Virus record (IMG/VR): IMGVR_UViG_3300036831_000148
Location: 82,269 to 146,268 of that record
DNA length: 64,000 bases
From: a virus
Reading direction: 5' to 3' (one strand)
In this document: positions 24,902-55,226 of the stretch, in pieces
How positions within the stretch are numbered: the stretch's first letter is position 1
How the letters are laid out: each line of letters begins with the position of its first letter
Program-made: the position numbers and the translations under genes
The notes under the pieces: generated by a model
Told to the model about the DNA's origin: nothing
Databases searched by the model: none
The model's input: the letters and a program-made list of their open reading frames with translations, nothing else

Positions 24902-24995
24902 CGTGCCTGCCTCTCGCAAAGACTCCCGGGGAAAAGCTACTGCCCCGCTCCTGCCTCCAGGGTAGCGGGGTAGTTGACTTGAGTCAAGTAAAGGA

Positions 24996-25232
24996 TCAGG
25001 AAGGCGCGGGGGCGCACGCCTGGTAGGCGGCGGCGGTCACCAGGTCGGGGTCGCCCCCGGCGGCCCGCAGCTCCTCCGCCAGCCGAGCGGCGAGGGCGAC
25101 CGCCCCGGCGAAGGAGAAGCCGGGCATCTCCGCGCCCATCGCCAGCACCTCGTCGTCAAGGCCGCCGCGGTAGGCGGTCAGCCCGGCCAGGGCGGCCAGC
25201 AGCCCGTCGGCCGGGGTGGGGGGTGGCGTCAC
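24996..25232 (-). CDS. hypothetical protein
   Basis: AGGAGG RBS, 78 aa. Confidence 0.55.
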   Translation of the reverse strand: MTPPPTPADGLLAALAGLTAYRGGLDDEVLAMGAEMPGFSFAGAVALAARLAEELRAAGGDPDLVTAAAYQACAPAPS

Positions 25233-25374
25233 GTGGTCCCTCCTGCCGTCTCCCCGCCCGGATTCACTTTACCGAAGTAGCCGGGAGTCCCTGACGTGCG
25301 GTTTCCCGGAGATTCACCCCTGCGCAAAGACAAGCACTTCATACGCCTGAGCCAGAATTGGTCTAGACCGGGCC

Positions 25375-25656
25375 TCACGCGGGCCCCTCCCCTCGCAGGA
25401 TCTGGTCCCACGCGGTGCCGGGCACCTCGCTGCCGGGGACCAGCACGAAGCCCGCGTCGATCTTGGCAAGGGTGCCCATGAGCTGGCGGACGACCGCCTC
25501 ACGGCCCGCTGAACTGGGGGAACCCCCGGAGGAGAGCTTCTCGGCGACCGCCTCGCGCAGCCACTCGGCCATGGAGAGGCCCGCCGACTCGGCTGCCTTG
25601 CGCACCTCGTCGCGCACTCCCGGCCCCAGCCTCAGCAGGACCTCGCTCCCCTCCAT
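25375..25656 (-). CDS. Arc/ribbon-helix-helix DNA-binding protein
   Basis: VLLRLGPGVRDEVRKAAESAGLSMAEWLREAVAEKL. Confidence 0.8.
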   Translation of the reverse strand: MEGSEVLLRLGPGVRDEVRKAAESAGLSMAEWLREAVAEKLSSGGSPSSAGREAVVRQLMGTLAKIDAGFVLVPGSEVPGTAWDQILRGEGPA

Positions 25657-25663
25657 GAGGGGA

Positions 25664-25727
25664 TGATAGCACTAATGATAGCTATCACAAGTGATATCTG
25701 ATATCGCCAAACGATATCACTATAGCT
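25664..25727. promoter_or_regulatory. AT-rich TGATA/TATCA repeat cluster, putative RHH autoregulatory operator
   Basis: tgatagcactaatgatagctatcacaagtgatatctgatatc...gatatcactatagc immediately upstream of the RHH gene. Confidence 0.6.
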
Positions 25728-27482: not shown

Positions 27483-27608
27483 TCAGTCTTCCTCGGACTC
27501 GCTCGCGCCGAACACGGCGGGCAGCACGCAGGACAGCAGGGTGACAGTCCCGAACGCCCATGCCGGCCACCACAGTCGCGCGGCCTCAATTACGTATGCG
27601 AAGAACAT
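27483..27608 (-). CDS. 41-aa membrane peptide
   Basis: Not in the ORF track. MFFAYVIEAARLWWPAWAFGTVTLLSCVLPAVFGASESEED behind the palindrome at 27657 and a full conserved leader. Confidence 0.65.
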   Translation of the reverse strand: MFFAYVIEAARLWWPAWAFGTVTLLSCVLPAVFGASESEED

Positions 27609-27693
27609 CTCTGCCTGCCTCTCGGTTGGTTGCCTAGGGCAAGCCTACTGGCATGGCTTGACCAGAGTCAAGCACTAACCGTAGACTGGCCTT

Positions 27694-28025: not shown

Positions 28026-28289
28026 CTAGCGCGAGCTCCTGCCGCGGCGAGGCCTCGCCGCGCGCTGGGGTGCCACGTAGGGGCGCTCACGGCGCCGCTG
28101 GGCGACCGTGGGACGCGACGCCATGGCGTCAAGCATCTGCGCCGTGCGGGCCTCGCTACGGCCGCCGTTCAGCCGTGAGCGGTGCCATACAGCCTCGCGC
28201 CGCATCTCGTCCGGGGTCATGCGCAAAGCCGTGCCGTACGCCACTGCGGCGCGCCGGCCCGCGTCCCTCTGCTGCCTGGTGAGTGCCAT
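28026..28289 (-). CDS. basic hypothetical protein (cassette gene)
   Basis: Leader at 28293, palindromes 28310/28334. Confidence 0.7.
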   Translation of the reverse strand: MALTRQQRDAGRRAAVAYGTALRMTPDEMRREAVWHRSRLNGGRSEARTAQMLDAMASRPTVAQRRRERPYVAPQRAARPRRGRSSR

Positions 28290-28393
28290 GGGTGCCTGCC
28301 TCTCGTTTGCTTGACTCCAGTCTAGCTCATTGGCTTGACCACAGACAAGCAACTAGCCCGGAACCTTGGGTTCCGGGCTAGCGGGGGAGAGGC

Positions 28394-28819
28394 CTAGCGG
28401 CCGGTGAACCCCTCCGCGATGCGCTTGTCCGTCAGGACAAAGCGCACGATGTCAGCATGAGGGCCGAACATGCGGGCAAGCGTGCCGCAGTCCCCCTGCT
28501 CGTCAATGACCTCCCAGAGAACTTGCTGGGTCTTGACACGGTCAGCCTCGCTGAACTCGCGGGTGTCCGGCGCGCGCCCGGTAGCAGCTTCAAGATCGGC
28601 GCTCTCGCGCATGGGGTCTACCTCGTAAGCCGAGATCTTAAGGTCTGCGGCCGCAATGAGGCCCAGAGGGTTAATGATGCCCTCCGCCACGCGCGCCGCG
28701 CTTTCCTTGCTGAGAATGCCCTGGACACGGGAGTCTAGGTAAAAGGTGGGGACACTGCGGCTACCGTCAAAACCGCCATCGTGCGTAATGACCTGAGTGT
28801 GAATCGCGTACGTGGTCAC
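28394..28819 (-). CDS. hypothetical protein (cassette gene)
   Basis: Leader 28824, palindrome 28869, downstream hairpin about 28353-28381. Confidence 0.75.
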   Translation of the reverse strand: MTTYAIHTQVITHDGGFDGSRSVPTFYLDSRVQGILSKESAARVAEGIINPLGLIAAADLKISAYEVDPMRESADLEAATGRAPDTREFSEADRVKTQQVLWEVIDEQGDCGTLARMFGPHADIVRFVLTDKRIAEGFTGR

Positions 28820-28938
28820 TGAGTGCCTGCCTCTCGGTTGGTTGCCTGGGGCAAGCTTACCCGTAAGGCTTGACTAGAGTCAAGACTACTAGCCCGGGAA
28901 CCTTCCTGCCGTTCCCGGGCTAGCGCGCGAGGCCGCGC

Positions 28939-29436
28939 CTAGTAGCGGCGTCCCCTGTTTTTCAGGTTAAGCAGCACCGTGAGCGCACCGCGCAGAGAGT
29001 GAGTCTCAGCGTAGATACCGCCGGTCAGCCGGTAAACCTCATACGGCTTGGCGTCCTCGTCTTCCGGCATGACATCGGAGGCCGGCCTGTTGTCGGCGCG
29101 CGCGTCGGTCACGTAGCCGAGAGGCTTGCGCGCGCGGGGGGTAGACAGCGTGTCCTCCCGGGTAACCGGGTAGACAGACCAGTCTGCCATAGCGGGCATT
29201 GAGACCTCCCCGTACGGGACTGCCTCAGCGTAGTCGCCGCGCGCGCCGCCGTAGACAGTGGTCACGAGGTAGCCGGCGGGCCGCCAGTAGACACGTGCCC
29301 TGGGCGCGGTCACCATGCCCTCTTGAACGGCTCTCTCCAGCCATTCAGCGGCAGCGTTCACCGTGTAAGAGTGCTGGCCTGTCAGCAGTTCCATAGCGCC
29401 GCCCCGGTCAAGCAGCGGCGTAGCGGTGGGAGTCAT
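28939..29436 (-). CDS. hypothetical protein (cassette gene)
   Basis: Leader 29441, downstream hairpin about 28889-28923. Confidence 0.7.
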   Translation of the reverse strand: MTPTATPLLDRGGAMELLTGQHSYTVNAAAEWLERAVQEGMVTAPRARVYWRPAGYLVTTVYGGARGDYAEAVPYGEVSMPAMADWSVYPVTREDTLSTPRARKPLGYVTDARADNRPASDVMPEDEDAKPYEVYRLTGGIYAETHSLRGALTVLLNLKNRGRRY

Positions 29437-29451
29437 CGGGTGCCTGCCTTT

Positions 29452-29622
29452 TCAGAAGTTGTCGGTGGCGAGGAACAAGCCGGATCCCGCGTCCCACCAG
29501 ATCAGGCACACGGTGCCGTCCCGGTCGGTGGCTTGCATGCTGTCCGCGTCGCCGGCGCGCATCTCGTCAAGGTCAGCCTGCGCAAGCCCGGGGAACGCTT
29601 CCCGCATCTCGTCTGAGGTCAT
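29452..29622 (-). CDS. acidic 56-aa peptide, leaderless
   Basis: Not in the ORF track. MTSDEMREAFPGLAQADLDEM...; ATG 6 nt after the TACAGT -10 of palindrome 29643. Confidence 0.6.
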   Translation of the reverse strand: MTSDEMREAFPGLAQADLDEMRAGDADSMQATDRDGTVCLIWWDAGSGLFLATDNF

Positions 29623-29708
29623 GCCCTCACTGTACAGATGTACTTGACTAGAGTCAAGGCTAGAGATTATCCTGCAGGTACATCAAACCGGAAGGCAGGC
29701 AAGCCAGG

Positions 29709-30098
29709 ATGAACAAGCCGCTGGTCAGGACTAACGGGGCATACGCGCGGGTCACCCGCGCCGGCGCAGTACAGCTAAACCCCCCTAACGCCTACTGGGA
29801 GCCGGGCAGTGAGAGCCTGCTCGCTGAGTCGCACGGCGCGGCCTCCGTTATTACCCACCTCGTCATGGCGGGCCGCCTCACCGTGAACGAGCTAGCCGGC
29901 GAGTTCCTGCGGCTAGTGGAGGCTGACGTTGCGGCCGGCTACGTGGGGTGGGACATGCCTGACCTGCAGTACCTGTGCGACAACACCGACGCCAACAGTT
30001 ACGGGCTGGAGATACTCGGCTGTGACATGTCGGACGAGGGCATGGAACTTTGGAACAACGTTTACGAGCGTGTTGACGAGCTCCTGACAGGCCGCTAG
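29709..30098 (+). CDS. acidic hypothetical protein (inverted cassette)
   Basis: Plus-strand leader CGGAAGGCAGGCA at 29689; terminator hairpin about 30111-30158. Confidence 0.8.
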   Translation: MNKPLVRTNGAYARVTRAGAVQLNPPNAYWEPGSESLLAESHGAASVITHLVMAGRLTVNELAGEFLRLVEADVAAGYVGWDMPDLQYLCDNTDANSYGLEILGCDMSDEGMELWNNVYERVDELLTGR

Positions 30099-31270: not shown

Positions 31271-31486
31271 TCAGAATCCCATGAGCGCGTCAAGTACCGC
31301 GCTGTCCAGGGCAGGGGCCTCGATACCGCCGCGCGCGTAGGCTGCCGCGGCAGCCCGCACGTGCGGGAAGCGGTCCAGCATGTGGGCCGCCATCTGCGCC
31401 GTCTCGTCGTAGCCGAATTCGGCAGGGTCCCCCTTGACGCGGTCTATGGCGTCTGCCGTGTGCGCTAGCTGTATCGAGTCGTACAT
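31271..31486 (-). CDS. hypothetical protein (cassette gene)
   Basis: Leader 31489, palindrome 31534. Confidence 0.7.
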   Translation of the reverse strand: MYDSIQLAHTADAIDRVKGDPAEFGYDETAQMAAHMLDRFPHVRAAAAAYARGGIEAPALDSAVLDALMGF

Positions 31487-31497
31487 GGTGCCTGCCC

Positions 31498-32532
31498 CTC
31501 TCGGTTGCCTGTGGCCCTACTGTACAGGGTCAGCTTGACTAGAGTCAAGAGGCTAGGCAGGAGAGGGGACAGAAAAACCGGGCGCGTTCATCTTTCATCA
31601 AACGCGCCCGGTCTCCCGGTATCCAGTTGTCACAGCATAGCTAGGCAGGGGGCAGGCCGGCCAGGGCCTCGCTCACCTGCCACGCGGGCAAGCGCAGGCC
31701 GCCAGCGTCGGCGAGCGCCGTAGCCGTCTCGCGGTCGGGCGCGTACACGGCCGCCGTGTCAAACAGCCAGCACCGCAGCCCGGCCGCGCCGCCGTAGCCG
31801 GGCAGGCAGCCCGGCGCGCGGAAGCGGAACACGGCGCGGCCGGGCTCGCGAAAGTCCACGTCCACTAGAACCCCAGGGCGGTACCGTAAGCGCGGTCAGC
31901 CTCGCTGACCAGGCGTGCCGCGTGGTCAATGGCGCGGGCAAGGCCCCGCGCCGCTAGCCGCAGGTCGGTACGGACCGTGTAGAAGTCCACCAGCCTGCGC
32001 GGGTACTGCTCAGGCTCAGCAGTGAAGGGGAGGCCGCTGCCGCCGGGAACGTCCATGCCGGCCGCGCGCAGCCGCGCGTAAAAGTTCTTTGACTCGTCAT
32101 GCGTGCGGGTCACGTAGTGGATTTCGTGCCCCATGATGACGTGCCCGGTCGCAATGCGGTCAAGCAGCATGGACACGCCGGCCGGGCAGCCCTCGCCGCG
32201 CGCCATCTCCCGCAGCGTCTCGCGGGTCCCGTAGGGAACGAACTGGGCGGGCTGGTCACTGTGGGGAACCGCCCACTTGCACGCTTCGGTAATGCACTGG
32301 TGGCCGGCGCCACGGTGCCCCATGAGGCAAAGGTGGTAGCCCTCTTCGCACACGTAGACCTCATGGCCGGCGTAGGTGACGCCGGCCAGCTCCCACGGCG
32401 CGCCGCACGGGTCAAGCTGGGGGGTGACCGCGGCGCTGGTCCGCTGGTCAAGGATGATGATCGTCACTTGCTGCCTGCCTCTCGGTTGCCTGTGGCCCTA
32501 CTGTACAGGGTCAGCTTGACTAGAGTCAAGAG
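31498..32532. repeat. identical 54-bp promoter-leader direct repeat (31498-31551 and 32479-32532)
   Basis: ctctcggttgcctgtggccctactgtacagggtcagcttgactagagtcaagag in both copies; a related copy at about 32803-32852. Confidence 0.9.
31865..32467 (-). CDS. hypothetical protein (cassette gene)
   Basis: Leader 32472; Cys/His-rich; followed by coupled ORF 31641-31865. Confidence 0.7.
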   Translation of the reverse strand: MTIIILDQRTSAAVTPQLDPCGAPWELAGVTYAGHEVYVCEEGYHLCLMGHRGAGHQCITEACKWAVPHSDQPAQFVPYGTRETLREMARGEGCPAGVSMLLDRIATGHVIMGHEIHYVTRTHDESKNFYARLRAAGMDVPGGSGLPFTAEPEQYPRRLVDFYTVRTDLRLAARGLARAIDHAARLVSEADRAYGTALGF

Positions 32533-32533: not shown

Positions 32534-32785
32534 CTAGCAGGCGCTCGCGTGCTCGCACCGCGTGCCGCCGTGCCCCAGGTCAGCCGCGTACCAGCGGACC
32601 AGCGGCCAGCCCTCCGGGTGTACCAGCACGTCCGTCCGGTAAGTCGCGAACGAGAAACCCTGCTCGCGCGCGGCGGCATCCAGCCTGTCCGCGTAACCGG
32701 GTACCTCGGTGTCCGGAATGGTGAGCTCTGCCTGCTCTATGGCGCCAGGGCTCTCTGTCGTCCATGCGTACGTCCGGAGTTTCAC
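32534..32785 (-). CDS. hypothetical protein (cassette gene)
   Basis: Leader 32790. Confidence 0.7.
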   Translation of the reverse strand: MKLRTYAWTTESPGAIEQAELTIPDTEVPGYADRLDAAAREQGFSFATYRTDVLVHPEGWPLVRWYAADLGHGGTRCEHASAC

Positions 32786-32903
32786 GGGGTGCCTGCCTCT
32801 CGCTCGGTTGCCTGCCCCTACAGTACAGGGTCAGCTTGACTAGAGTCAAGAGTACAGCGCCGCTCGCGCCGGCGGGGAGGCTAGCGCGAGCGGCGCTGCA
32901 TTA

Positions 32904-34241
32904 TCACACGCGCGGTACTCCGAGCCTGGCGAGGTAATCCGGTACGGGAACAGGGTCGCCAGGAACGCCGGCCCGTACCCCGGCGGGAGCCGGGGCAGGA
33001 TCCGGGGCACTCGGGCGCGCGGTGCCCGGCCTGACCCCGTAAACCCGGTCTGAGCCGTCAGGGTGGGCGTAGCGGGCTACGTGCACGGCTTCCCGGTCGG
33101 GAAGGGCTCGCCAGGTCAGCACCGCGCCGGCGTCCGCTGCGGCAGCGGCGCGTGCATCCTCGCGCGTGGCGAACTCCCCGGGAAGGTAGATGTTCGCGTC
33201 CGGGCAGCGGTCACGGCGTACCAGGCAGAGAACCGCGAACGGCCCGGGGTCGCTGTCGGCCGGCGGGGCGGCCGTGCCCGCGGTCAGGGCGAGCACGGGC
33301 CGCGAGCGCTGCAGTTCCGCCGTGCCGGCGAGCTCAGCGGCCGCAATGCGGGCGCTGCGGGCGCTGGCCGAAGCCACGAACTCAGCGTGGGCAGCCACCC
33401 CCAGGCCCGTTATGACGTACCGCTGAGGTTCCGCGCCGCTGCCGTTGGCCTTTTCCTGCAGGATGACCCGTACCCGCTCGTCTTCCGGGCTGAGGTCAAC
33501 GCGCAGCACCACGCGCAGCGAGTCAAGCACCGCCGGCGAGCCGGCCACCTTCCCGTCCTTGGTGAAGTGGTGCAAGATCACGAACGCGATGTCAGCGGCT
33601 CGCGCGAACTCGGCCAGCTCGACCATGACGCGCCTGGCCCGCTGCCGGTAGTCAATCGAGTAGCCGTCAGACAGCAGCGCGGACAGCGAGTCAGCTACCA
33701 CCATGCCGACGCGCGGGGTTCCCTGCTCGTCGGCCTCGCGGTTCATCATGCTGACAACCTGGGCGATGCGCGGGCAGTCAGCTGGGATGGTGACCAGCCC
33801 GCCGTCTAGCCAGCGCGAGAGGTTATGGACGAGGTGAATAGCGCCGTCCGGGCCTTCGCCAGCCAGCTCAGGCTCTAGGCCGAACTCGGCTACCGCGCGC
33901 GCGATGGCGGCGCGCAGCCGCGGCGCCAGGTCCTCGTAGGCGTCATCCTCGCCAGGGCCGGTGATCCACAGCACGCGGACGGGCTCGCGCCGCTCCTCCT
34001 GGTCGTCGCCGGGGAACGGGAGGCCGAGAACCAGCCGCGCGGCCACGGCCGCCGTGAGGAAGCCCTTGCCCGTGCCGCCTTTCGCGGCGATGACAACGGG
34101 TGACCCTACCGGGATGTAGCCGCGCCACCACCAGCGCCGCTCAATAACCGGGTAGCTCCCGAAACCAGGGGCGACGCGCCCGGATCCGGGAACTGGGCTA
34201 GGTGCGGGCTGCACCTCAGCCAGCACGTCAGTTAGCGACAT
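32904..34241 (-). CDS. RecA-like AAA ATPase (AAA_25/RepA-type SF4 helicase domain)
   Basis: WWWRGYIP, AAKGGTGKG, VVADSL, ILHHFTK, EKAN; leader at 34246. Confidence 0.8.
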   Translation of the reverse strand: MSLTDVLAEVQPAPSPVPGSGRVAPGFGSYPVIERRWWWRGYIPVGSPVVIAAKGGTGKGFLTAAVAARLVLGLPFPGDDQEERREPVRVLWITGPGEDDAYEDLAPRLRAAIARAVAEFGLEPELAGEGPDGAIHLVHNLSRWLDGGLVTIPADCPRIAQVVSMMNREADEQGTPRVGMVVADSLSALLSDGYSIDYRQRARRVMVELAEFARAADIAFVILHHFTKDGKVAGSPAVLDSLRVVLRVDLSPEDERVRVILQEKANGSGAEPQRYVITGLGVAAHAEFVASASARSARIAAAELAGTAELQRSRPVLALTAGTAAPPADSDPGPFAVLCLVRRDRCPDANIYLPGEFATREDARAAAAADAGAVLTWRALPDREAVHVARYAHPDGSDRVYGVRPGTARPSAPDPAPAPAGVRAGVPGDPVPVPDYLARLGVPRV

Positions 34242-34358
34242 AAGCGCCTGCCTTTCATCGGTTGCTCTACCTGCGATGATATAGCAGGGCTTGACTTGAG
34301 TCAAGACAAGCAGCAGCCCGCCAGGCCACCCGGGGGGCCTGGCGGGCTGGTCAGGGGG

Positions 34359-34826
34359 TTAGCGGGGCTGAGCCTCGCGCATGCGCCAGTAGTCGAATAC
34401 CACGCGGTCGCGGACGTTCGGGTTAAGCGTGTGCACCGTGCGAACGCCGTACGCGCCGTCCTGGGTGACCAGCGCCAGCGTGTACTGAGCGTTACTCATG
34501 GCCGCGGTCATCAGGACCGGCTGCAGCGCGTAGAACCCGCCCGGCCCCATCCCGTCGCGCGGGTCACCGCTCAGGAACTCGCCGTGCGACTCGGCGGCGT
34601 ACCCGTACAGGACCCGCGTCGTACCCCACGTGCCCGCGTCCGGAAGGTCGTTCTCCAGGGTCAGGCCGCGCTCCGTCATCCAGCGGTCAAGGCCGGCCCG
34701 CGTCTCGAACGCGGTGTGGGACATTGACCCGTTGCTGACTATGAACCAGTAAGGGCCGTGCCGCTCGTGCTGCTCGGCCGTCAGCGAGGTAACTTGCAGC
34801 TTGTCAAAAACCTGCCGGTAAACCAT
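34359..34826 (-). CDS. hypothetical protein (cassette gene)
   Basis: Leader 34830, palindrome 34875. Confidence 0.8.
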   Translation of the reverse strand: MVYRQVFDKLQVTSLTAEQHERHGPYWFIVSNGSMSHTAFETRAGLDRWMTERGLTLENDLPDAGTWGTTRVLYGYAAESHGEFLSGDPRDGMGPGGFYALQPVLMTAAMSNAQYTLALVTQDGAYGVRTVHTLNPNVRDRVVFDYWRMREAQPR

Positions 34827-34893
34827 GGGTGCCTGCCCTTCGGTTGGTTGCCTGGGGCCAGTTTACCGGCAGATCTTGACTAGAGTCAAGAGA

Positions 34894-35238: not shown

Positions 35239-36082
35239 GCCCCCGCCGCCTGCCCGGCCGCAACCGCCTCGTAACGCTCGGTATCGTGGTCAAAGGTCAG
35301 CAGGTGACCGGGCGCGGCCAGGTCCGGCCCCTTGGTCATGTGCACCGCGCCGACGTCACGAGCCCAGCTCATGAGCCTGCGCGCGCGGGTGTTGGAGACC
35401 AGCGTGCCCGCGGGCGACTGGCCGGAGGTGAGCCAGCTAAACGCCTGGTCGTGAGTCATCGGGTCCATGTGCCTGCCCCTCGTTGGTTGCCTGCGCCCAT
35501 CTTACCGGCAAGGCTTGACTAGAGTCAAGGTACAGGCTCTAGCGCACCGCCACAGACAGCCGGGGGAGGCCACTAATCCAGTTCTCTAGCGCCTGGTCGC
35601 GGCGCCGCTGCTGCGCTGCCGTCAGCCTGGAGGCCGGGTCGTACCAGATGCCGCGCCCGGCCGTGTAGCGCGTCTCCAGGCTGCTCGCGGCGAGGGTGAC
35701 GGTACCGTCGTCGTTTACCGCCACGTCGGCCCACAGGGGCACGAACCTGCGCCACCACTCAGCGGGGCGCGGGAAGGCGGGCGCGTCGATCTTGCCCTGG
35801 TCAATGACGATCATGATTCCTCGCTGCCGGTAAACCGGAAGTCCACGCCGGCGCACAGGCCGGACGCCGCGCTGTTGTCGGCGAAGGTGACGGAGTAGCG
35901 GGTCCACGGATTCGAGCCGTGCGACTCGACTCTGGTCACGACGCCTTTAAGGCCCGCAGGGATCGGGAGAAGGTACCTGGCGTAGTCAGGATCCCCCCAG
36001 CCGGGGAAGTCAGCGGACCGGCGGCGGTGCCGCGCGCCGAGCGCAGACACCGGCCGCCCCTTGTCGCCGTCGTGAACGTTGC

Positions 36083-36565
36083 TCACGCGGTAGCCTCGCC
36101 GCGCTCGTGGTCAGGCCAGATCCAGTTATAGCCGCCGCTGCCGAACTCCGGGCCACCGAACGGCGTGCCGTTGCGGTCAAGCCGGGGAGGCAGGTAGCGG
36201 CGCGTGCCGCCCGCCAGGGCGAACAGCCAGCCGGACATGTCGTACGGGTAGCTGTCCACCACGCCGACGCGCGCGGCTATGGCCGCGGTCAGGTGCGGCT
36301 CGGGGCAGTGGCACCCGTTGATGACGTGGCAGAAACTCGCGTGGCTGCCGGTGATGCTGGCCGCCGCCTGCTCGCGCGAGGTGAAGCCGCTGCCCCACTC
36401 GCCGCACAGCAGGCACTCGGCGCAGTACGCCATGTCAGGGTGCCTGCTGTGCCAGGTGCGGTAGCGCGCGGTGCGCTGCTCGCGGAGGGCCCTGTCAAAC
36501 TTCACGAACCCGGGCACGTACGCCAGGCGCACGGGCCGGGCCGCGGCGGTCGGGGTGATGGTCAT
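36083..36565 (-). CDS. hypothetical protein, first of operon with 35811-36086 and 35539-35814
   Basis: Leader 36569 is a perfect 14-nt complement of the ncRNA loop. Confidence 0.7.
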   Translation of the reverse strand: MTITPTAAARPVRLAYVPGFVKFDRALREQRTARYRTWHSRHPDMAYCAECLLCGEWGSGFTSREQAAASITGSHASFCHVINGCHCPEPHLTAAIAARVGVVDSYPYDMSGWLFALAGGTRRYLPPRLDRNGTPFGGPEFGSGGYNWIWPDHERGEATA

Positions 36566-36900
36566 GGCTGCCTGCCTTTCGCGGTCAGGCGGGGGGCCTT
36601 ACGGCCACCCCGCGTGACTCCACTATAAGGCTTGTCTTGACTTGAGTCAAGATGATGACGACAGCACTTCCCGGCCCGCTCCGGTCAGCTCAAGCGCGTA
36701 CGGCCCGGCAACAGTCCCCGGGCTCACCAGCCCGGCCGCGATGGCACGGTCAACCGAACGGTAACCGAACTGCAGGCCGCACTGCAGGCCTGTCTCCGGG
36801 TGCGGCGCCACGTGGCGGGCCGGCCCGATCTTCGCGCACCCCGGGTTAGCCGCCACGTAGGCGAGCACCTCGCGCATCCGGGGGCCGACGCGGGGCGCTC

Positions 36901-37404: not shown

Positions 37405-37516
37405 GGTGTCCTGCCTTCCGGTCGGCTGCCTGTCCCCTGATCATATGCTCTGACTTGACTAGAGTCAAGATAAACGCCAAGGCCCCCGGGGTGACCCCGG
37501 GGGCCTTGCGCTGCGG

Positions 37517-37696: not shown

Positions 37697-37810
37697 GGGT
37701 TGCCTGCCCTTCGCTGTGGTGTTGTACCTTCATCGTAGTGCAGAGCTTGACTGGAGTCAAGACATAGGACAGCCCCCGGAAGATCTTCCGGGGGCTGTCC
37801 TGCCGGGGGG

Positions 37811-44282: not shown

Positions 44283-44633
44283 TCACTTCGCCGGCTTCCC
44301 GTCATCCAGCACGCACGTGGCCTCGTAGTCGTCCCACCGGCTCAGGAGCTCGGCCACGGGCACGGGGCCGTCCTCAGACTCGCGCTGCACGTAGGCGAAG
44401 AACGCCCCGCCGATCTGGGCGAGCGAGGCGGCCAGCGCGGTCAGCGCCGGCATGACGTCGTACGCGCCGTCCTCACCCTGGCTCAGGTGAGGGGACACCC
44501 GCTCCAGGTAAGGCAGCAGGACGTCTGCCGCCGAGCCGGCGGGCCCTTCGGCCTCGGAGAACTCGATTGCCTGGCGCACCAGCGCCATCGCGGCGAGCAG
44601 GGCCTCGTCCTGCGCCGGGTTTTGACCGTTCAT
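44283..44633 (-). CDS. hypothetical protein, first of operon with 43849-44286 and 43463-43849
   Basis: Leader 44638, palindrome 44681. Confidence 0.75.
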   Translation of the reverse strand: MNGQNPAQDEALLAAMALVRQAIEFSEAEGPAGSAADVLLPYLERVSPHLSQGEDGAYDVMPALTALAASLAQIGGAFFAYVQRESEDGPVPVAELLSRWDDYEATCVLDDGKPAK

Positions 44634-44696
44634 GCTTTGCCTGCCTCTCGGTTGCCTGTGCGCCCAGCCTACCGGCTTCGCTTGACTTGTGTCAAG

Positions 44697-44755
44697 AAAA
44701 AGGTGAGGCCCCCCGTGTGCGAAAGGCAGGCAACCAATCCACGGGGGGCCTCGCC
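44697..44755 (-). terminator. intrinsic terminator with an unusually large 22-nt loop
   Basis: GGCGAGGCCCCCCGUG-[GAUUGGUUGCCUGCCUUUCGCA]-CACGGGGGGCCUCACC-UUUUU. Confidence 0.8.
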
Positions 44756-45506
44756 GCAGAGGGGACGCGCTCCGCGCCGGGCTACTCGGCTAAGTGGGCA
44801 GATCTGGCGCGCCGGGAGACGCCTCGCCCGGCGGGTTCCCCTCGCCGGCGCAGCAGGCCCGAAGGCCTGCCACGATCTTCAGTTGTCCCTGCAGCCCGCC
44901 TAAGCGGGGTAAGACGGGCTGCAGAGCCTTGCGCCCGGGTGCCTGGCCCGGGGAGCCTGTTCAGTTTTCGCAGCGGCCGGGCGCAGGACCAGTCCGGGGC
45001 CGGAACCGCCCGGCCGCCACTTCGACCCATCTGAGGGTGCACCTCGGTAGCCCGGGGTCGCGGCGGGCTACCACTCAGCTAGTCCCCGGGCCAGGTGTTT
45101 CGCTGGTCCGTAGCGGTGTCGGCGCGCCGGCCGTATTTGGTCTCAGCGCCCCTCACGCGTTCGCCAGGTACTTGACCTGGCCCGGGAAGCTAGAGGACAA
45201 CGGCCATCGGTTTCCAACCCCGGCCCGCGGAGACGCCAGGCGGCGAGCCTGACGCGGCGGAAGGCCCTGGCCTAGCAGGGTCCCGCTGCCCTCAAGTCAC
45301 TGTTCAGTTACCCGCCAGGGGCGGTATCGCTAGCGAGTCCGGCAAGCCGGGTTCTGCCGCGCTGTACCCCTCCCTGACGGGAGTCTTAGTGAGCGAGGCC
45401 CTGGGCGGAGGGGGCTGCGGCCTGCTCTGTGGCCGGTGTGCTGCCTTTCGGGCGCTCCTGGCCGGTCCCTCTCTTGCCTGCTCGCTGGCCTTCCGGCCTC
45501 GCTCAC
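44697..45506 (-). ncRNA. candidate long structured ncRNA (about 810 nt) with a 3' anti-leader loop
   Basis: No credible ORF; promoter TTGACA-18-TAGCCT; predicted +1 at 45506 opens a 12-bp stem (45495-45506 with 45389-45400); many hairpins including a cUUCGg loop near 44852-44869; ends in a GC hairpin plus U5. Confidence 0.8.
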
Positions 45507-45512
45507 AACTAC

Positions 45513-45543
45513 AGGCTAAAGGCTGGCCTTTACTCCTGTCAAG
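45513..45543 (-). promoter_or_regulatory. ncRNA promoter overlapping a palindrome variant
   Basis: -35 TTGACA (45542-45537), 18-bp spacer, -10 TAGCCT (45518-45513). Confidence 0.75.
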
Positions 45544-45547: not shown

Positions 45548-46108
45548 TCAGCGGGGATTCTTCCGGTCCGCCAGCAGCCGCAGCGCGGGCACCGGCCCGG
45601 TCACCCTCTCCTGGGTTCCCCGCTCGCGCTGCCATGCCTGCGCAAGGCCGATGCGGGCGCGCCAGGCGAGCTGGGAGACGGCGGCCGGGCTCAGGCCCCA
45701 CTCAGTTGCCAGGCTGGTCACCGGGAAGCCCTCGACCTCCGTCAGCCACAGTACCTGGCGCCAGCGCGGGGACAGCGTGCCGAACGCCCGGCCCACCATC
45801 TCCCGCTCCTCGGCGAGTACCGCCAGGTCGCCAGCTGCCGGGGCGTGGCGGCGCGGGGCCGGGTCGGCCGCGGGCACGGTGCGCCGCCGCTCGGCCAGCC
45901 AGTCACGGGCGATGTTGCGCACCGCCGCCAGTAGGTAGGGCCGGAACGCGCCGGCCGGCCCCCCGCCTGCCCGCATCGCGGCCAGGACCCTGGTAAAGGC
46001 CTCGGCCACGATGTCGTCGGCCGCGTCCGGCGGGACCAGGGACAGCGCGGTGCGCCTCGCCGCCGTCAGGTGCTCGGTGTACAGCGACGCGTAACCGAGC
46101 TCGGGCAT
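45548..46108 (-). CDS. ECF sigma-70 factor
   Basis: AADDIVAEAF...FRPYLLAAVRNIARD and region 4 LSPRWRQVLWLTEVEG...RAR. Confidence 0.9.
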   Translation of the reverse strand: MPELGYASLYTEHLTAARRTALSLVPPDAADDIVAEAFTRVLAAMRAGGGPAGAFRPYLLAAVRNIARDWLAERRRTVPAADPAPRRHAPAAGDLAVLAEEREMVGRAFGTLSPRWRQVLWLTEVEGFPVTSLATEWGLSPAAVSQLAWRARIGLAQAWQRERGTQERVTGPVPALRLLADRKNPR

Positions 46109-46161: not shown

Positions 46162-46473
46162 CTAGCGGGCTGCGCCGTTCAGCCGCTGGCCCCACCGGGC
46201 GAGCGCGGCGCGCGCCTCCCGGTCCCCGAGCTCGGTAAGCCGGTAGTACCGGCGCGGCGGGCGCCCCTCGGCCGGCGGGTAGATGTCCTCCCAGCGCGAC
46301 GTCGTCCAGCCCTTCTCCTCCAGCCGCCCCAGGATCGGGTACAGCGTCCCGCTGCAGATCCCGGTCGCGGCCCGGACCTGCAGCCCGTACACCTCCCGGC
46401 CGGGCTCAGCGAGCAGCTCGCGCAGCACCAGCAGCGTGGTCAGCGTCATCCGGGGGTTGCGCGGCGCGCTCAT
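46162..46473 (-). CDS. PadR-family transcriptional regulator
   Basis: YGLQV...SGTLYPILGRLEEKGW...RRYYRLT. Confidence 0.9.
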   Translation of the reverse strand: MSAPRNPRMTLTTLLVLRELLAEPGREVYGLQVRAATGICSGTLYPILGRLEEKGWTTSRWEDIYPPAEGRPPRRYYRLTELGDREARAALARWGQRLNGAAR

Positions 46474-48727: not shown

Positions 48728-49726
48728 TCAGCTCCCCTTCAGGGCCTTGCGCAGGCCGGCAAGCTGCCCGGCCAGGTCGTCAATGTCGGCGATCACCGTC
48801 TCGCGGCAGGCCCCGCCGGCGACATGGCGCCAGATCATCCCCGCCTGGCAGTGCAGGGCCGCGAACACGGCAGCGGCCTCCACGCTCTCGTCGGGCGTCA
48901 GGCGCTCGCCGCTCACCGGGCGCACACCGGGTTCCCGTCGTGGATGCCGATCACCCGCTGCCCGGCCGGGCAGAACACCGACGGGACGGGCGCGGGGGTG
49001 AAGATAGAGGGAACCGAAGACGGGCCGGGGCGGGTGGCAACGGCGTGCACGCCGATCGCCGCGAACACGACCAGGGCGCCCAGCAGCACGCCGACGAGCA
49101 GCCCGAGCAGCACCTCGCGCACGGTTTCGCTCACCGCAGGTCACCCCGCTCAAGCTCCTCCGGGGTGACAGTGGACGCGTCCAGCACCCGCTCCGCCTCC
49201 GCGTCGTCCACCGGGTAGTCGCTGACGACCCACGTGTAGTTGTCCGAGCCGTCGTCCGCCTCGCGCAGGTGCACGCGCCCGCCGGAGACCTCAGTCACGA
49301 ACGCGGCGATCCGCGCCATGTCCGGCTGCTCCTGCCAGTCCCAGGAGAACGCCTTCGCACGCGGCGGGCTGAAAAAATCCGGGCTCATGGTCACGACCCG
49401 GTCAGCGCCGGGGAACCGCACGTACAGGGCGTACTCTCCGACCTTGACCAGGGTGACCGCCACGGTCGGCCGGTCCAGGAACCGCCGGACCAGCGTCTTG
49501 CCCACGTACGCGCGGGCCTCCTCCAGCAGCATCAGAACGGGCCGGTCTCTTCAGAGCCGTGGCGCGGGATGCGCGGCTCGGCAGCCGAGCCGCTGATGAC
49601 GCCGGTCGCCGTCATCCGCTCGCCCGGCCGCAGCACCTCGTTCTTCAGGAGCCAGCTGGTCGCCTCTTCCGGGGTGTTCACGCCGTCCTTGACCAGGCGC
49701 TTCATGAATTCCAGCCGGTTGTTCAC
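48728..49726 (-). CDS. four small coupled ORFs (48728-48916, 48913-49134 membrane, 49131-49532, 49532-49726)
   Basis: Operon behind palindrome 49776. Confidence 0.6.
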
Positions 49727-49815
49727 TAACTGCCCCTCTCGGTTGCCTGCTTATGCTACCTAGCCTACTAGTCCTCTTGACCAGAGTCAAGGGATAGGGC
49801 ACCAGGAAGCGCCCG

Positions 49816-52589
49816 TTACCGGGACCAGTCAAGGCCGGCCGAGTTCTTGCAGGCCGTGATGCCCGCCCGCGGCCAGTGCAGGTGGTGAAGGCGGCCACCC
49901 CGGAACTGGTACATCCAGCAGACGTAGCCGCCGCGCTGCCGGTAGCGAACTGCGGCCGCCGCGAAGCCGACAAGCCCCAGGCCGAGGGCAAGGCCGAGCA
50001 GCGCCACCCCGGTCAGCAGGGGAGCGCTCACGTGGTAGCCCTCACCAAGGATCACCAGCAGGGTGCCGCTGGTGAGGGAGCCGGCGGACAGCACGGACAC
50101 TACGGCGACCCGGCGGGCACCGGGGTCATCAGGCCTCTCGGGAACGGTCACCGCTCGAACACCCACCATCCGTCGTAGTCGGCAGGCACCGCCGGGTAGG
50201 CCGCCAGCATCGGCACCAGGATGCTCATATAATGCCCGCGCTCGTCCTCGTCGGACAGGCACCAGAGGTTGGCACCGTCCCAGCGGGCCCGGCACTTCCC
50301 GCCGTAGGAGCCGTTGATATACGCCGCGAGGAACTCCCCGGCGGAGCGCCGGAGCGGGGACTGGTAGTCGGTCAGCAGGCCGGCGCACGCCATGGTCCGG
50401 ATCGGCCCGGTACGGTTCACGCGGTGACGGCGGAACCACACCGCGTCCACCTCGCCGCGCCCGTCTACCTCAGCAAGGCGGTACGTGCTCAGGTCCACCG
50501 CGTAATGCGCGCGGGAGGTCATGAAATTCTCCGCCTTAATCACAGCGCAGGCACCCCCTCAAGTACGGCCGCGCGGGCGATCCCGCGCGCCTCCAGTTCA
50601 CCCAGCAGTTCCGTCAGCTCGCCGATGGACACCTCGCCGCTAGCCAGTTGGCAGGCGAAGGCGCGCCGCTGCGCCTCGGCGGCGTACTCCAGTTCCGGAG
50701 ACCACTGCATGGCGTCGCCGTAGGCCGGCGAGTCCCAGAGGGACTCCCACGCGTCAGCCTCGTAATCCGGCCACGTCACCGGGTTAGACGGCTGAACCGC
50801 CACCTCGGCCCCGTACCAGCGCAGCAGGCTCGCCCGGCCGTAGGCGCCCGACGACGACAGGAACGCCCGCTCGCGCGGCCAGCGGAACTGGCGGCGGCGC
50901 AGTTCGCGGCGCTCCGCCCTGCTCAGCGTCTTCAGGAAATCCGGGGAGCTCCAGCACGCGGGCCACCAGCCGGGGGAGAACGACCCCTCCGGGTAGATGA
51001 CCGACAACTGGTAGACCCGCTGCACCCGGCTCATTCCGACCCCTCCGACCCGAACCGCTGCAGCAGGGCGGCAAGCTCGCGCATCTGCTGAACGGACATG
51101 TCGTTCCTGGCGCGGGACGGGTTGAAGCCCCACGGGCGCAGCACCGCAGTCAGGCTCTCCCGCTCCTGCCGCTCGGCGAAGCCCTCTACCGACTCGATGC
51201 GGAAGTCCTGGGTGCCGGTGACGTGCAGGCCGGTCTCCCGGAGGAACCTCATGCCGGCCACGGTCAGCCACTTGTGCCCGGCCGCCTGCACCTGCTCGCG
51301 GCGCGGGGAGCCGGGGATCCCGATGTAGTAGACGGTGTCCCCGCGCTCCACGGCGGAGAGGTCGTTAGCGCGCACCCGGCGCTCCCTTCAGCCGGGCCGC
51401 GCGGGCGAGCCACCCGGCCTCGAACGACGCGGCCTCGCCGGCGCACTCGTGGGCCCGGTCGGCCCGGTACCAGGAGGCGTAGTCAGCGGCCAGGGCGGAC
51501 GGCTCGTCTTCCCGCGCCAGCCCGGTCACTGCGGCGATCCACTCGGCGGCGACCTCCTCCGCGCTCGCCTGCAGCGCGTCCATGTCGTCGTCCTTCCACT
51601 CCTGGCCCGCGTAGCCGGGCAGGTCGCAGCGCATCAGCCAGTTCGGGTCCTCGCGGCGCGTCTTCCAGTTGATGCTGAACAGGCGGATCCCGCCGGCCGT
51701 GCCCGTGTGGGTGCTGTACTGGCCCTGGGCCCACGTCAGCAGGCCGCTCATGACGCGCCTCCGGCCTGCAGCGCGGCGCGCACCGCGTCCCCCGGGCTCA
51801 TGCCGAGGGCCTTGCGGGCCTCGTCCATCTGCGCGAGCAGTTCCCCCACGCGCGCCTCGGCCAGGACCATGTCATCCCGGGCCACCTCCAGCGCCAGCCC
51901 CGTGGTCACGTACTCCGACAGCCCCGCCCGCTCCTCGAACTCGGCCAGGGCCGCGCGGCCGTAGTCCAGCAAGGTGTAGCGGGTGACGGTGAACTGCGTG
52001 CGGCCGGCGATGAAGCCGTGCGCCCGCAGCGCCCGCGCGGCCCGGCCGAGCGCCGAGAGGTTCTCGGGACTCGGGTCCGGTACCAGGCCCTCAGCGGCCA
52101 GTTCGGCGAGGGAGAACCACCGCCGGTACCCGTCGGGGGCCAGCGTGGTCGGCTGGCGGCGGCGGAGCGCCGCCAGCCGCAGCATGGACAGGACCGTGAC
52201 CCTGTCCGCGTTCAGGTACCGGGTCATGACTCCCCCGGCTCCGGGGCCGTGGCCGCTGCGGCCATGGCCTCAAGGCGGCGGGTGCTCAGGTTGCACCGGT
52301 GGGTAACGTCCACCCCGGCCGCGCGCAGGGCCGCCTCGGCCGAACCTCGCCGGCGCGCCTCCTCAGCCTCCTCCAGGGTCCGGAAGTACTGGTGGCCGTA
52401 GCTGTCGTTGGTCCGGCCCTCCTGGCGGCGGAACACGGTCACGCCGTGGGGGTAGTCAATCGTGACCAGCTTCGGTCCGGCCTTGACGACCGTGCCCTCC
52501 CAGCCGCCCGCCGGCTGGCCGACCCGGTCGCCGTTCACGTCGAAGACGCGGACCTGGTCGCCTGGCTTCACGTCCCGGTAGTTCTTCAC
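49816..52589 (-). CDS. operon of seven small ORFs (49816-50151, 50148-50543, 50540-51034, 51031-51375, 51365-51751, 51748-52227, 52224-52589)
   Basis: Overlapping start/stop coupling throughout; leader 52594, palindrome 52637. Confidence 0.7.
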
Positions 52590-52647
52590 AGGGTGCCTGC
52601 CCTTCGTCGGTTACTTACCAGCAGGCTATCAGTAGTCTTGACTGGAG

Positions 52648-54641
52648 TCAAGAGACATGGGCATCCCGGATAGCCGCCTTCTCGGCCGCCGTCAGCGGCC
52701 AGGACGCGCGGCCCGGCCTGCCGCCGTCCGCGTGCGACCAGCCCTGGCACGGCCCCTCATGGTCGGTGTCGTGGCCGGGCGCGGCATCGCACTGCCACAT
52801 GTGCAGCGGGTCGGGCCGGTAGAACTCGCCGCACCGGCGCGGGACACCCGGCCAGCCCTGCGCCAGCCAGGAAGCCAGCCACGAGTGCAGCCAGGCGGCC
52901 ATCGGCCGCTCCAGCAGGATGGACCGCGGGTGGCCGGTGGTCCGGTGGCCGACTGACAGCAGCACGACGTCCTCCCGGGCCGGGCGCGAGCGTGGCCGGG
53001 CCTGCAGGTAGCTGGTGCCGAACACAATCTCGGCGCCGGCGGGGCCGGCCTCCAGTTGCGGGTAGCCGTGGCCCCACGGGTTGGAAGTCATCGGCACGGT
53101 GCCCGAGCTCTCGGCGTCGCGGACCTGGCGGCGCAGCTCGCCGTTCTCGATGAGCAGCTTCATGTAGCGGTCGGTCAGTGCGGCCACCTCGGCGTTCAGG
53201 GAGGCATAGCACCGAGGGCACGCGCCGTCCCCTTCCCAGTCGGGGTGCTCCGGGTTGAGGCAGCGGTCGTCAGCAGTGGGGGCAGTCATTGGCGTCTCCT
53301 GTCGCGAGGAAGCGGGCGGTAGACCGCTCGCGCTGCCAGGCGGGGTAGCCCTCCAGGTCCAGCCCCGCCTCGAACCGCTCGGCGTACGCCTTCGCCGACT
53401 CGGCCAGCGCGGTCAGTTCCGGCGCGCCTCCCGGGCGGCCCGGCCCGCGGCCGAGCGGGAAAACGATCACGCTCTCCGCCGACTCGCGGGCGGTACGCGC
53501 CGTCAGGCCCCGCGCGCCGGTGGCGACCAGGAACCGGGCCAGCCGGACCTCCCGCTCACCAGTAAGGACCAGGTAGCCGTGCTCGGCGCCGTAGGCGAAC
53601 TGGACGCGCTCGACTTTAATCCAGTCCATCAGCCCTCCCCGCCGAGCAGCTCGCGCAGCCGGGCCTCGGTGCCGGCCTCGGTGCCCGTCCACGCGTGCTC
53701 GCGCAGCCGGGCGACCGCGTCGCCGGCGCGCGGGTCCAGCATGTCGGACAGGCCCGGGTCGGCAACCGCCTCCACCACCGCAGCCAGGTCGCGGACCGGG
53801 TCGTAGGCCAGGTCCGCGTCGGCGGCCCGGCGGGAGGCCCTGACGGGGTCGTCGTCAAGCAGGGTCACCCAGGCGGCGATGTCCAGCAGGTTGTACGCCA
53901 TGGAGCCGTCCCTGCGGACCGATCCGTCAAACTCGGGGGCGGCGCCCGCGTGCCCGGCCCGGCGCAGCGAGGCGCGGGCCCGTCCGAAGATCGTAATGGG
54001 GTTCGCTTCCGAGCGGCCCCCTGGCTGGCGGATACAGACCGCCACCTCCGGGAAGCGCGGCGCGTCAACCGCGCCGCACTGCTGCAGCAGCGCCAGCACC
54101 GCGCCGGGGGTAGCCGGGAAGGCCGACTGCGGCAGCCCGCAGGGGGACATCGCCGGGCGGGCGGTCAGGATCAGGGCGTGCATCGCGAAGATCACGGCCG
54201 GGGTCCGGGGGAGCTGGTCGGCGTACCGCGCGTAGACCGGCTCGGTCTCCTGCAGGAACATGTCGTAGTCGGTGGTGTGCTCCAGGATGTCGGCGACCTC
54301 CGCGCCGACCATCCTCGGCCACCGGTCGGCGACGTAATCCAGCACGGCGCGCTGCTGCTCGGCGGTCAGCCCGTGAGCGACCGCCAGGAGCGCGGCGTCC
54401 CGCTCCTCTTCCTGCGGGTCCCGGCTCATGCGACGGGAACCAGGACGGCGGGCAGCACGGCCAGGGCGCGGATGGACGCGTTCCGGAACTCCGGCTTCGC
54501 CGCCTCGATCGACTCGCGGTAACGGGCTACGACCTCCGCCGTCGGCTCGCCCGGCCGGATGAAGAAGGTGTCGGTCCACGTGCCCTCGTAGTGTGACAGC
54601 CCGCAGTCCCTCGCCAGGGTGAGGAAGATCGTGAAGTCCAT
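52648..54641 (-). CDS. operon of four ORFs (52648-53289, 53270-53629, 53629-54429, 54426-54641)
   Basis: Leader 54644, palindrome 54686; coupled frames. Confidence 0.7.
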
Positions 54642-54758
54642 GCTGCCTGCCTCTCAGTCGGTTACAGGACCAGCGTAGTACACGACTTGACTCCGGTCAA
54701 GAAAAGAGCCAGCCTCCGGCGGGGGTGGTGCCGGAAGCTGGCTCGCTCAGGGGGGGGG

Positions 54759-55007
54759 CTAGCTGCGGTAGGAGGCCAGGACGACAACGCCCTTCTCCAT
54801 CGGGAACAGCGCCCGCGCCTTCCCGGCCTCCTCTTCCGAGGCCTCGCCGATGGCGCAGACCTTGACCGCCGGGTTGTACCAGACATCGCCCTCGTAGCCC
54901 GCCTTAGCGGCCACCTCGCGGGCATCCGGCTCCGTGTCCGCGATGATGACCAGCGCCTCGATCTCGTCGTAGTCCGCGCCCTTGCGCTCCAGGGACCAGA
55001 TGTACAT
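54759..55007 (-). CDS. acidic small protein (cassette gene)
   Basis: Leader variant 55010, palindrome 55054, hairpin downstream. Confidence 0.75.
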   Translation of the reverse strand: MYIWSLERKGADYDEIEALVIIADTEPDAREVAAKAGYEGDVWYNPAVKVCAIGEASEEEAGKARALFPMEKGVVVLASYRS

Positions 55008-55226
55008 GGTGCCCGCCTTCCGGTTAGTTGCCTGGTACCAGTCTAAGGGCTGACTTGACTGGAGTCAAGACTCTGCGCGGGCCTGTTCCGCGCCGCCTCA
55101 AGCTCCCACTCGGGCGCATGCAGCCTCCAGACGTGGTGGCAGTTGGCGAAGAACCGGCAGCGCTCGTCAAGGTCGCACAGCGACGGCTCGCACGAGGTAC
55201 CCGTGAAGGCGGCCGCCGGGCGCGGG

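Follow-up and report, generated by a model that had tools for sequence, protein, structure and literature searches.

Start-associated sequences (SAS) were described in 2011 in mycobacteriophages of Cluster K, in which a 13-bp motif lies 3-9 nucleotides (nt) before 11-19 start codons in the non-structural half of the genome. The motif overlaps the Shine-Dalgarno (SD) sequence and is conserved beyond it, and some 50 bp upstream, about half of the copies are accompanied by an inverted-repeat element (ESAS) with a promoter; the role of SAS was still called unknown in 2024 and 2025 (PMC3203893, PMC11373665, PMC12699233). The 2011 paper also reported one reverse-oriented SAS per K1 phage, which was left unexplained (PMC3203893). 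Here we describe a start-proximal motif, RGGCAGGCA, in a phage genome from IMG/VR (record IMGVR_UViG_3300036831_000148; 146,268 bp, 72% G+C, estimated to be about 97% complete). The analysed stretch, hereafter the window, comprises 64,000 nt (bases 82269-146268 of the record). Its part from 22 to 58 kb is an early region of many small genes arranged in short cassettes. Positions are those of the window, and features lie on the minus strand, which carries nearly all window genes, unless stated otherwise.

The window motif and the SAS/ESAS system have much in common. Both motifs are short and asymmetric, occur in one orientation in a non-structural region and favour ATG. They overlap the SD position and yet contain conserved bases beyond those that pair with 16S rRNA. 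Both have an inverted-repeat promoter element about 50 nt upstream, and in both systems a single copy of opposite orientation is not linked to a gene start. They differ in that SAS contains an uninterrupted AGGAG, whereas the window motif is an SD split by a C, and in that ESAS consists of 17-bp imperfect arms around a spacer, whereas the window element is a tight 16-bp palindrome that holds the -35 hexamer itself. The host and the phage family also differ. The SAS consensus GGGATAGGAGCCC, with up to two departures allowed, gave a single two-mismatch match in the window against 2.6 expected; in phage Anaya, the positive control, it gave 17 matches against 0.7 expected. The likeness to Cluster K that the first-pass annotation had drawn is thus one of architecture and does not extend to sequence. 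The finding itself is real and strongly non-random, and it represents the start-associated type of sequence in an unrelated phage family.

Start-proximal motif and promoter module

Matches to RGGCAGGCA number 27 in the window against 2.88 expected, a count reached by none of 100 shuffles, and the other 82 kb of the genome hold only two further matches. The gene strand carries 24 of the 27. The three plus-strand copies lie at 29693 (in a divergent module), at 31800 (inside a coding sequence) and at 44724-44732 (in a hairpin loop). Twenty exact copies are located 1-7 nt 5′ of an ATG or GTG, and the open reading frames (ORFs) that they open show a coding-type G+C content at third codon positions. 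The same holds for three copies with one mismatch (34245, 38220 and 55010) and for two looser ones (37409 and 49740). The first-pass annotation had counted about 24 genes with this motif before the start; we recovered them as 20 exact and about five near copies, nearly always at the first gene after a gap. In the early region the motif precedes 24 of the 43 genes that have a gap of at least 45 nt before them, compared with one of 33 internal genes, according to gene calls made with our own crude codon-usage caller. By the same calls and with a loose definition of the motif class, 62% of the motif genes start with ATG, compared with 41% of the remaining phage genes. Internal genes and genes outside the region have GGAGG-like sequences or overlap the preceding stop codon, and the ordinary SDs listed previously at 8994, 18581, 20282, 27274 and 58406 are all present.

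We pooled the copies of the window and nine related loci (10 loci), which gave 125 non-redundant start-proximal copies. The end of the core is 0-8 nt from the start codon, with a mode of 4, and the palindrome lies 43-110 nt upstream and is absent in 10% of the cases. The spacing of the motif is therefore tight to the start codon and loose to the palindrome, indicating that the motif tracks the start codon and not the promoter. Such spacing suggests that it functions in the mRNA, when translation is initiated, and not in the DNA; that the motif acts in translation initiation is in our view likely.

A unit of about 70 nt is repeated, and the motif forms its 3′ box. From 5′ to 3′ the unit contains, often behind a hairpin, a palindrome, 17-18 variable nt, a TAnnnT -10 element, about 7 variable nt, box 1, a linker and box 2. 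The palindrome, CTTGACT-nn-AGTCAAG, spans 16 bp and holds the -35 hexamer TTGACT; it lies mostly 45-57 nt upstream of the motif, and the pattern TTGAC-N4-GTCAA occurs 30 times in the genome, 27 of them within the window. Box 1 is cAGGCAACC, exact or one-off in most copies, in agreement with the upstream GGCAACC noted before. Box 2 is CGARR-GGCAGGCA, usually followed by C and then, after 1-5 nt, by the start codon. In the window, information content peaks at the palindrome and at GGCAGGCA; the spacer and the surroundings of the -10 carry little of it.

The TTGACA-like -35, the spacer of 16-18 nt and the TAnnnT -10 are those of sigma70/HrdB-type promoters. A consensus scan called 17 sigma70-type promoters between 27.0 and 46.9 kb, against 0.7 expected, and nearly all of them coincide with palindromes. 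A leader is missing from two copies of the palindromic promoter, where the ATG comes 6 nt past the -10: one at 15805-15842 (palindrome at 15828) and one at 29620-29658 (palindrome at 29644, ATG 29622), the latter back to back with the plus-strand module. This placement of the ATG sets the likely transcription start 7 nt after the -10, which would give a 5′ untranslated region (UTR) of 24-30 nt with box 1 at its extreme 5′ end. Another palindromic promoter, at 57977, precedes an ordinary SD. The palindrome looks like an operator for a dimeric phage regulator. At 29644 it serves divergent genes on both strands. A plus-strand promoter was also called on the palindrome at 27658 (27658-27687, TTGACC-18-TAGACT); facing an apparently gene-poor stretch, it could produce a divergent or antisense transcript. 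A long perfect hairpin is found 5′ of 12-14 of the 27 promoters, and a strict scan for U-tract terminators gave 8 hits against 6.6 expected, no excess over chance. We also tried GGCAACC and GGCAGGCA as an extracytoplasmic function (ECF)-type -35/-10 pair and dropped this assignment because their spacing is merely 5-10 nt. The modules resemble the repeated early promoters of lytic phages, with many near-identical promoters for the host polymerase, short cassettes and hairpins between them. They differ in that the -35 lies in a perfect palindrome and the whole 5′ UTR is conserved as strongly as the -35.

Relatives of the window phage were reached through an AAA_25 protein (32904-34241, its gene preceded by a module) and a phage ECF-type sigma factor with Sigma70_r2 and r4_2 domains (45548-46108), and are metagenomic phage contigs of about 150 kb. 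The palindrome is retained in eight further phages of this kind, and six of the eight have the exact core (L007/L027, L008, L009/L033, L011/L012, L026 and L028/L034), mostly as A-GGGCAGGCA-C and in 5-28 copies per locus of 14-21 kb. The AAA_25 protein is 45-74% identical in the three phages reached through it, and the sigma factor is 66-70% identical in L011/L012 and L026, which were reached through that protein. In L008 the bases 5′ of the core are often not purine-rich, so the invariant part is (A)GGGCAGGCA(C) and not the UUUC-pairing extension. The two more distant phages depart from the leader at the interrupter only: AC in L029/L031, with the leader AGGG-AC-AGGCAC, and A in L030/L032, with the leader AGGG-A-AGGCAC and a modified palindrome arm (CTTGACA-CGA-GTCAGG). 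Spacers vary freely within and among phages. Since the core is kept against this variation, the motif is held by selection and not by recent duplication.

Against the canonical actinobacterial 16S tail CCUCCUUUC, RNAduplex pairs GARRGG-C-AGG as 6 bp, a bulged C and 3 bp, with about -12 kcal/mol. The earlier description of the motif as an SD interrupted by a C was accurate in this respect. The leaders pair with the tail with a median of -11.7 kcal/mol, compared with -7.2 for other phage genes and -5.2 for random 22-mers, and their pairing is stronger than that of about 90% of the other genes of the window phage. GARRGG (6 nt) ends 8-12 nt and AGG 3-7 nt from the start codon, and full pairing with CCUCCUUUC requires the C to be bulged. 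In leaders of the L008 type, only (A)AGGG-C-AGG is left of the SD pairing. The uninterrupted SD core AGGAG does not occur in the motif, the core being AGG-C-AGG or GGG-C-AGG. The first-pass annotation had proposed that the motif replaces the SD. Because the motif itself is predicted to pair with the 16S tail, it is better regarded as a split and extended SD, presumably used with the C bulged out, than as a replacement of one.

The nearest cellular relatives of the ECF sigma factor (about 50% identity) are found in soil-assembled genomes of Streptosporangiaceae, a weak hint at a Streptosporangiaceae-like host for the window phage. The sigma matches L013-L025 and L035-L113 proved to be cellular ECF sigma genes without modules; they were set aside as relatives and used for the host hint and as control genomes. 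Three of the four Streptosporangiaceae-like genomes searched carry the canonical 16S tail, and no match was obtained in the fourth; in these three genomes of the putative host lineage the tail thus does not match AGGCAGG. In those genomes, 8 Mb contain 27-32 copies of the motif with a start codon behind it (11-20 for the reversed control), compared with about 20 copies in 36 kb of the phage, so that the motif is far from equally common before genes of the putative host.

Candidate ORF-free RNA and its antisense hairpin loop

Downstream of the ECF sigma gene and a gene for a PadR-like transcription regulator (46162-46473) lies an ORF-free stretch of about 810 nt (44697-45506). It is a candidate structured non-coding RNA with its own predicted promoter (feature 44697-45542; -35 at 45542-45537, -10 at 45518-45513, start near 45506). 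Homologous regions of 400-1100 nt are present in eight relatives (L008, L011, L026, L027, L031, L032, L033 and L034), and in every relative the sigma gene and the ORF-free RNA are syntenic. The region contains two invariant core words, CCTGGCGAACGC and CGGACCAG. No Rfam family matched it at gathering thresholds, and only noise appeared at E-values up to 5. The region seems to be a large structured phage RNA of a new type, which in L031 and L032 leads directly into the next gene without a terminal hairpin. The sigma gene of L030/L032 is much longer (435-458 amino acids), and that of L032 includes an anti-sigma-like zf-HC2 part.

At the 3′ end of the RNA in the window, directly upstream of the next promoter, there is a hairpin (44705-44752) with a perfect 13-bp stem and a 22-nt loop (44739-44718), followed by a U-run. 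Its loop sequence includes GGUUGCCUGCCUUUCG, which is antisense to the two leader boxes, and we refer to the structure as the anti-leader hairpin. The other strong hairpins 5′ of window promoters have loops of 3-9 nt, as opposed to 22 nt here. A matching hairpin occurs at the same place in six relatives (L008, L011/L012, L026, L027, L033 and L034). The seven loci show six distinct hairpins with five stem sequences, and every stem is fully paired over 13-16 bp. Double changes were counted at 10 of 13 stem positions, in register from the loop outward and with positional homology assumed. This count replaced an RNAalifold analysis of a MAFFT alignment, in which the stems were misaligned and the consensus was meaningless. 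Every loop, at 20-27 nt, includes UUGCCUGCC, in most cases as GGUUGCCUGCC; no more than three words of at least 8 nt, this 9-mer among them, are common to all seven RNAs.

The loop (GGUUGCCUGCC followed by U or C) is perfectly complementary to box 2 and also, by its GGUUGCC, to box 1, giving 13-17 contiguous pairs between loop and leaders. The predicted leader-loop duplex has a median of -28.0 kcal/mol, compared with -16.1 for non-motif genes and -14.8 for shuffled loops. The first-pass annotation had suggested comparing this pairing with that of the leader to the 16S tail, and the loop is predicted to be the stronger partner (-11.7 kcal/mol for the tail). Within the whole RNA of the window, L008 and L033, no other site pairs with the leader as well as the loop. 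Phages with nearly all-G leaders have C as the loop base that follows UGCCUGCC, and U is found there in the window and L033, where both A and G occur ahead of the core. In these two, lineage-specific bases farther 5′ in the leader are matched by the loop as well. The candidate cognate RNA that had been proposed from the window alone thus has comparative support from a loop conserved in seven loci and from covarying stems. Other matches to the reversed motif (14341 in L008, 14949 in L028, 16484 in L009, 927 and 4693 in L027) were no convincing case of a further conserved anti-leader hairpin.

Phage antisense RNAs that mask ribosome-binding sites (RBSs) include the c4 RNA of P1 and P7, which acts on icd-ant, sar of P22 and OOP of lambda. 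As in these RNAs, a structured phage RNA loop presents a sequence complementary to an RBS. The known RNAs act on one transcript or operon, whereas the window loop matches the leader of about 25 transcripts and, unlike them, forms the 3′ end of a conserved structured RNA of 400-1100 nt.

A similar arrangement is found in Cluster K. The reverse SAS of Anaya lies in the ORF-free gap between gp96 and gp97 (L116 39825-39930; about 59824-59929 of the record), and, read on the transcribed strand, provides the loop (10 nt, CCUCCUAUCC) of a predicted two-tier hairpin. The hairpin is conserved in Angelica, CrimD, Validus, Niklas and Amelie, giving six K1-type phages in all. In their alignment, double changes are seen at five pairs, and 92% of the cells pair, compared with 40-49% in slid controls. 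In some records a hypothetical coding sequence is annotated across this hairpin. The loop is degenerate in Amgine and Ekdilam, though Amgine holds 13-14 SAS copies, and Keshu has no such loop. The two distributions indicate that, in Cluster K as in the window family, the antisense loop copy is present in some lineages only.

Candidate readers of the motif

We propose the following explanation. The host RNA polymerase would transcribe about 25 short early cassettes from near-identical sigma70/HrdB-like promoters, whose palindromic -35 probably doubles as an operator, the PadR-like protein being a candidate binder. The common short UTR, fused to about 23 copies of this promoter, would open each transcript, and its box 2 would recruit the ribosome as a split SD. 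The positions that 16S rRNA cannot read (the C and the following GCA) may be kept because a phage factor reads them as the address of the class. The best candidate for this reader is the 20-27 nt hairpin loop that ends the ORF-free RNA. By pairing, the loop would mask the SD of all cassette-leading mRNAs at once, and the outcome would be a class-wide post-transcriptional control, early shut-off being its simplest form and activation or protection being possible as well. Two Phage_ProQ_C_like proteins of the early region, a candidate RNA-related factor at 51031-51375 and a second one at 52224-52589 whose own gene is headed by a module, might be related and are mentioned as a lead only.

As a whole, this explanation of a promoter-fused UTR with a split SD and an address read by an RNA loop has, in our estimation, about an even chance of being right. 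Its parts differ in strength. A trans-acting factor probably reads the motif, and the chance that this factor is the RNA loop seems to us to fall just short of even. The fullest form of the proposal must be put more tentatively: the loop may be the address reader for the leader and split SD of about 25 early mRNAs and switch the whole class, the interrupting C may confer orthogonality to ordinary SDs, and the same principle may explain SAS. The first-pass annotation had seen in the motif the mark of a separately controlled mRNA class. Much of this stands, as motif genes come first behind one family of palindromic promoters, internal genes have ordinary SDs and the core is invariant across phages; regulation by the loop is the part that we can only infer. 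With the comparative support of the conserved antisense loop, it is plausible that the motif marks such a class.

Several points weigh against an RNA loop as the reader. The U-run after the hairpin is present in the window and L027 only. No anti-leader site was found in the homologous ORF-free RNAs of L031 and L032, and since the leader is kept in these phages, it must function there without the loop, which would then be an added layer in one clade. All loop-bearing phages have the same core, so the core offers no clean compensatory change, and a DNA site copied in reverse could produce the U/C covariation as well. The C after GGCAGGCA is 81% conserved and pairs with neither the 16S tail nor the loop, which implies a further constraint. 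The 16S tail was read from the weakly inferred host lineage only. Finally, the transcription start, the ORF-free RNA, the pairing and the direction of the effect are all predictions from sequence.

One alternative is that the motif is only a strong RBS, AGGG-x-AGG plus CAC being best for stand-alone first genes, and that the reverse loop copy has another role or none. The strong predicted pairing with the canonical 16S tail and the SD-like spacing to the start are in its favour, as are the distant relatives, which retain the two G-rich halves, vary the interrupter (C, AC or A) and lack a detectable anti-leader loop; moreover, internal genes, being often translationally coupled, need no strong SD. 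However, the uninterrupted GAAAGGAGG would pair better, and yet the interrupted form is found in more than 120 copies in seven phages. The positions unable to pair with 16S rRNA (the C, the GCA and the final C) are among the most conserved, and the antisense 9-mer is invariant in a loop with covarying stems. We therefore hold this alternative to be unlikely.

The motif could instead be the target of a phage RNA-binding protein or endoribonuclease that recognises a class-specific RBS. In T4, the GGAG-specific endoribonuclease RegB and the translational repressor RegA control early mRNAs through the RBS (PMC1702504, PMC3014915). The likeness is that an early mRNA class is marked at the SD and a phage factor reads the mark and ends early expression; the readers of T4 are proteins, whereas the candidate reader in the window is an RNA loop. 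RegB, which cuts GGAG in early SDs, provides a precedent for a protein target (PMC1702504, PMC3014915). A protein would also account for the conservation of AGGCAC in every clade, including those in which no anti-leader loop was found, and for the conserved C past the core, which RNA pairing leaves unexplained; the early region, besides the two Phage_ProQ_C_like proteins, encodes many proteins of unknown function. On the other hand, a Pfam scan that covered about 30 window proteins, and was not a search aimed at such proteins, turned up no RegA/RegB-like or other known RNA-binding fold, and the antisense copy in a hairpin loop would be left unexplained. We regard a protein reader as quite unlikely.

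A third alternative places the function in double-stranded DNA. The motif would be an operator at +15 to +27, where a regulator acts as a roadblock or activator, and the reverse copy upstream of the promoter at 44682 would be an extra operator within terminator arms. The motif does lie within a promoter module in 90% of the cases, regulators (the PadR-like protein and the ECF sigma factor) are encoded beside the reverse copy, and the lineage-specific A/G before the core is mirrored in that copy, as would be expected of a co-evolving DNA site. The spacing is nevertheless tight to the start codon and loose to the promoter, which is missing from a tenth of the copies. The motif is asymmetric and strictly co-oriented with genes, and covarying stems around a 20-27 nt loop are characteristic of RNA. 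In addition, the reverse copy reads GGCAGGCA-ACC and not GGCAGGCA-C as in the leaders, and thus matches both RNA boxes rather than one copied site. A DNA operator is consequently improbable. Common descent alone, with recent duplicates homogenised by recombination, can hardly be right: the neighbouring modules at 31535, 32516 and 32836 are near-identical over their full length, but most copies vary in the spacer and the -10 flanks and not in the palindrome or core, and the retention of the core between phages at 45-74% protein identity already contradicts it.

Module positions, gene context and implications

Standard modules of the minus strand are given here with the motif and the start codon in brackets. 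They lie at 27606-27672 (27612-27620, ATG 27608), 28817-28884 (28824-28832, GTG 28819), 31484-31549 (31489-31497, ATG 31486), 32465-32530 (32472-32480, GTG 32467), 34824-34890 (34830-34838, ATG 34826), 35466-35529 (35470-35478, ATG 35468), 37694-37761 (37701-37709, GTG 37696), 39561-39631 (39569-39577, ATG 39563), 41592-41661 (41599-41607, ATG 41594), 41844-41909 (41848-41856, ATG 41846), 42408-42472 (42412-42420, ATG 42410) and 54639-54701 (54644-54652, ATG 54641). The standard module at 44631-44696 (44638-44646, ATG 44633) is immediately 3′ of the anti-leader hairpin, and that at 52587-52652 (52594-52602, GTG 52589) heads the second Phage_ProQ_C_like gene. A further standard module, at 32783-32850, has two motif copies, 32809-32817 (fused to AACC) and 32790-32798, before GTG 32785.

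The remaining modules depart from this form. Two have long leaders of about 73 nt with a hairpin: 24899-24988, in which the hairpin is inserted after the palindrome and -10 (motif AGGCAGGCA at 24904-24912, ATG 24901), and 36563-36651 (motif 36569-36577, ATG 36565). The palindrome is degenerate, with two mismatches, at 28287-28349 (motif 28293-28301, ATG 28289). At 29434-29449 a promoterless motif (29441-29449, ATG 29436) follows right after the TGA of the upstream gene. The sole plus-strand module, at 29643-29711, serves the divergent gene (motif 29693-29701, ATG 29709). One-mismatch motifs occur in the module heading the AAA_25 gene, 34239-34305 (AGGCAGGCG at 34245-34253, ATG 34241), in 38216-38281 (AGGCAGGAA at 38220-38228, ATG 38218) and in 55005-55069 (AGGCGGGCA at 55010-55018, ATG 55007). 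The module at 37402-37469 has a two-mismatch motif (AGGCAGGAC, GTG 37404), and that at 49724-49791 a degenerate start-proximal box (GAGAGGGGCAG, GTG 49726).

Replication genes occupy the window from 1 to 22 kb and encode a family A DNA polymerase, a DnaB-like helicase and an SNF2 helicase. Between them and the early cassettes sits a gene (20298-21998, minus strand) for a 566-amino-acid protein with TraG-D_C/TrwB-type coupling-protein domains, which are unusual in a phage. About 150 bases are repeated, with one mismatch, at the ends of the record (G000 1-150 and 146119-146268), which indicates a circularly permuted or terminally redundant assembly. Among GenBank phages, neither a megablast search with 20 kb of the early region nor a tblastn search with a 673-amino-acid window protein gave a match, and the DNA polymerase showed only 33% identity, to that of Microbacterium phage Magritte. 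There is apparently no close cultured relative of the window phage. A search for related loci with the DNA polymerase found none, and a scan of IMG/VR for the exact 17-nt palindrome gave two single matches, probably due to chance. The module pattern had no matches in 185,579 species genomes, which therefore offered no prophage or host clue.

The motif is an independent second case of start-associated sequences, in an uncultivated family of soil actinophages with genomes of about 150 kb. The conserved hairpin loop gives its start-proximal box a concrete and testable partner. Since a hairpin loop likewise holds the reverse SAS of K1 phages, the idea can be tested in Mycobacterium smegmatis with existing phage engineering. 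If it is true, the early translation of these phages would be governed by a class-wide, RNA-guided switch, and the split SD would be a natural, addressable and semi-orthogonal RBS.

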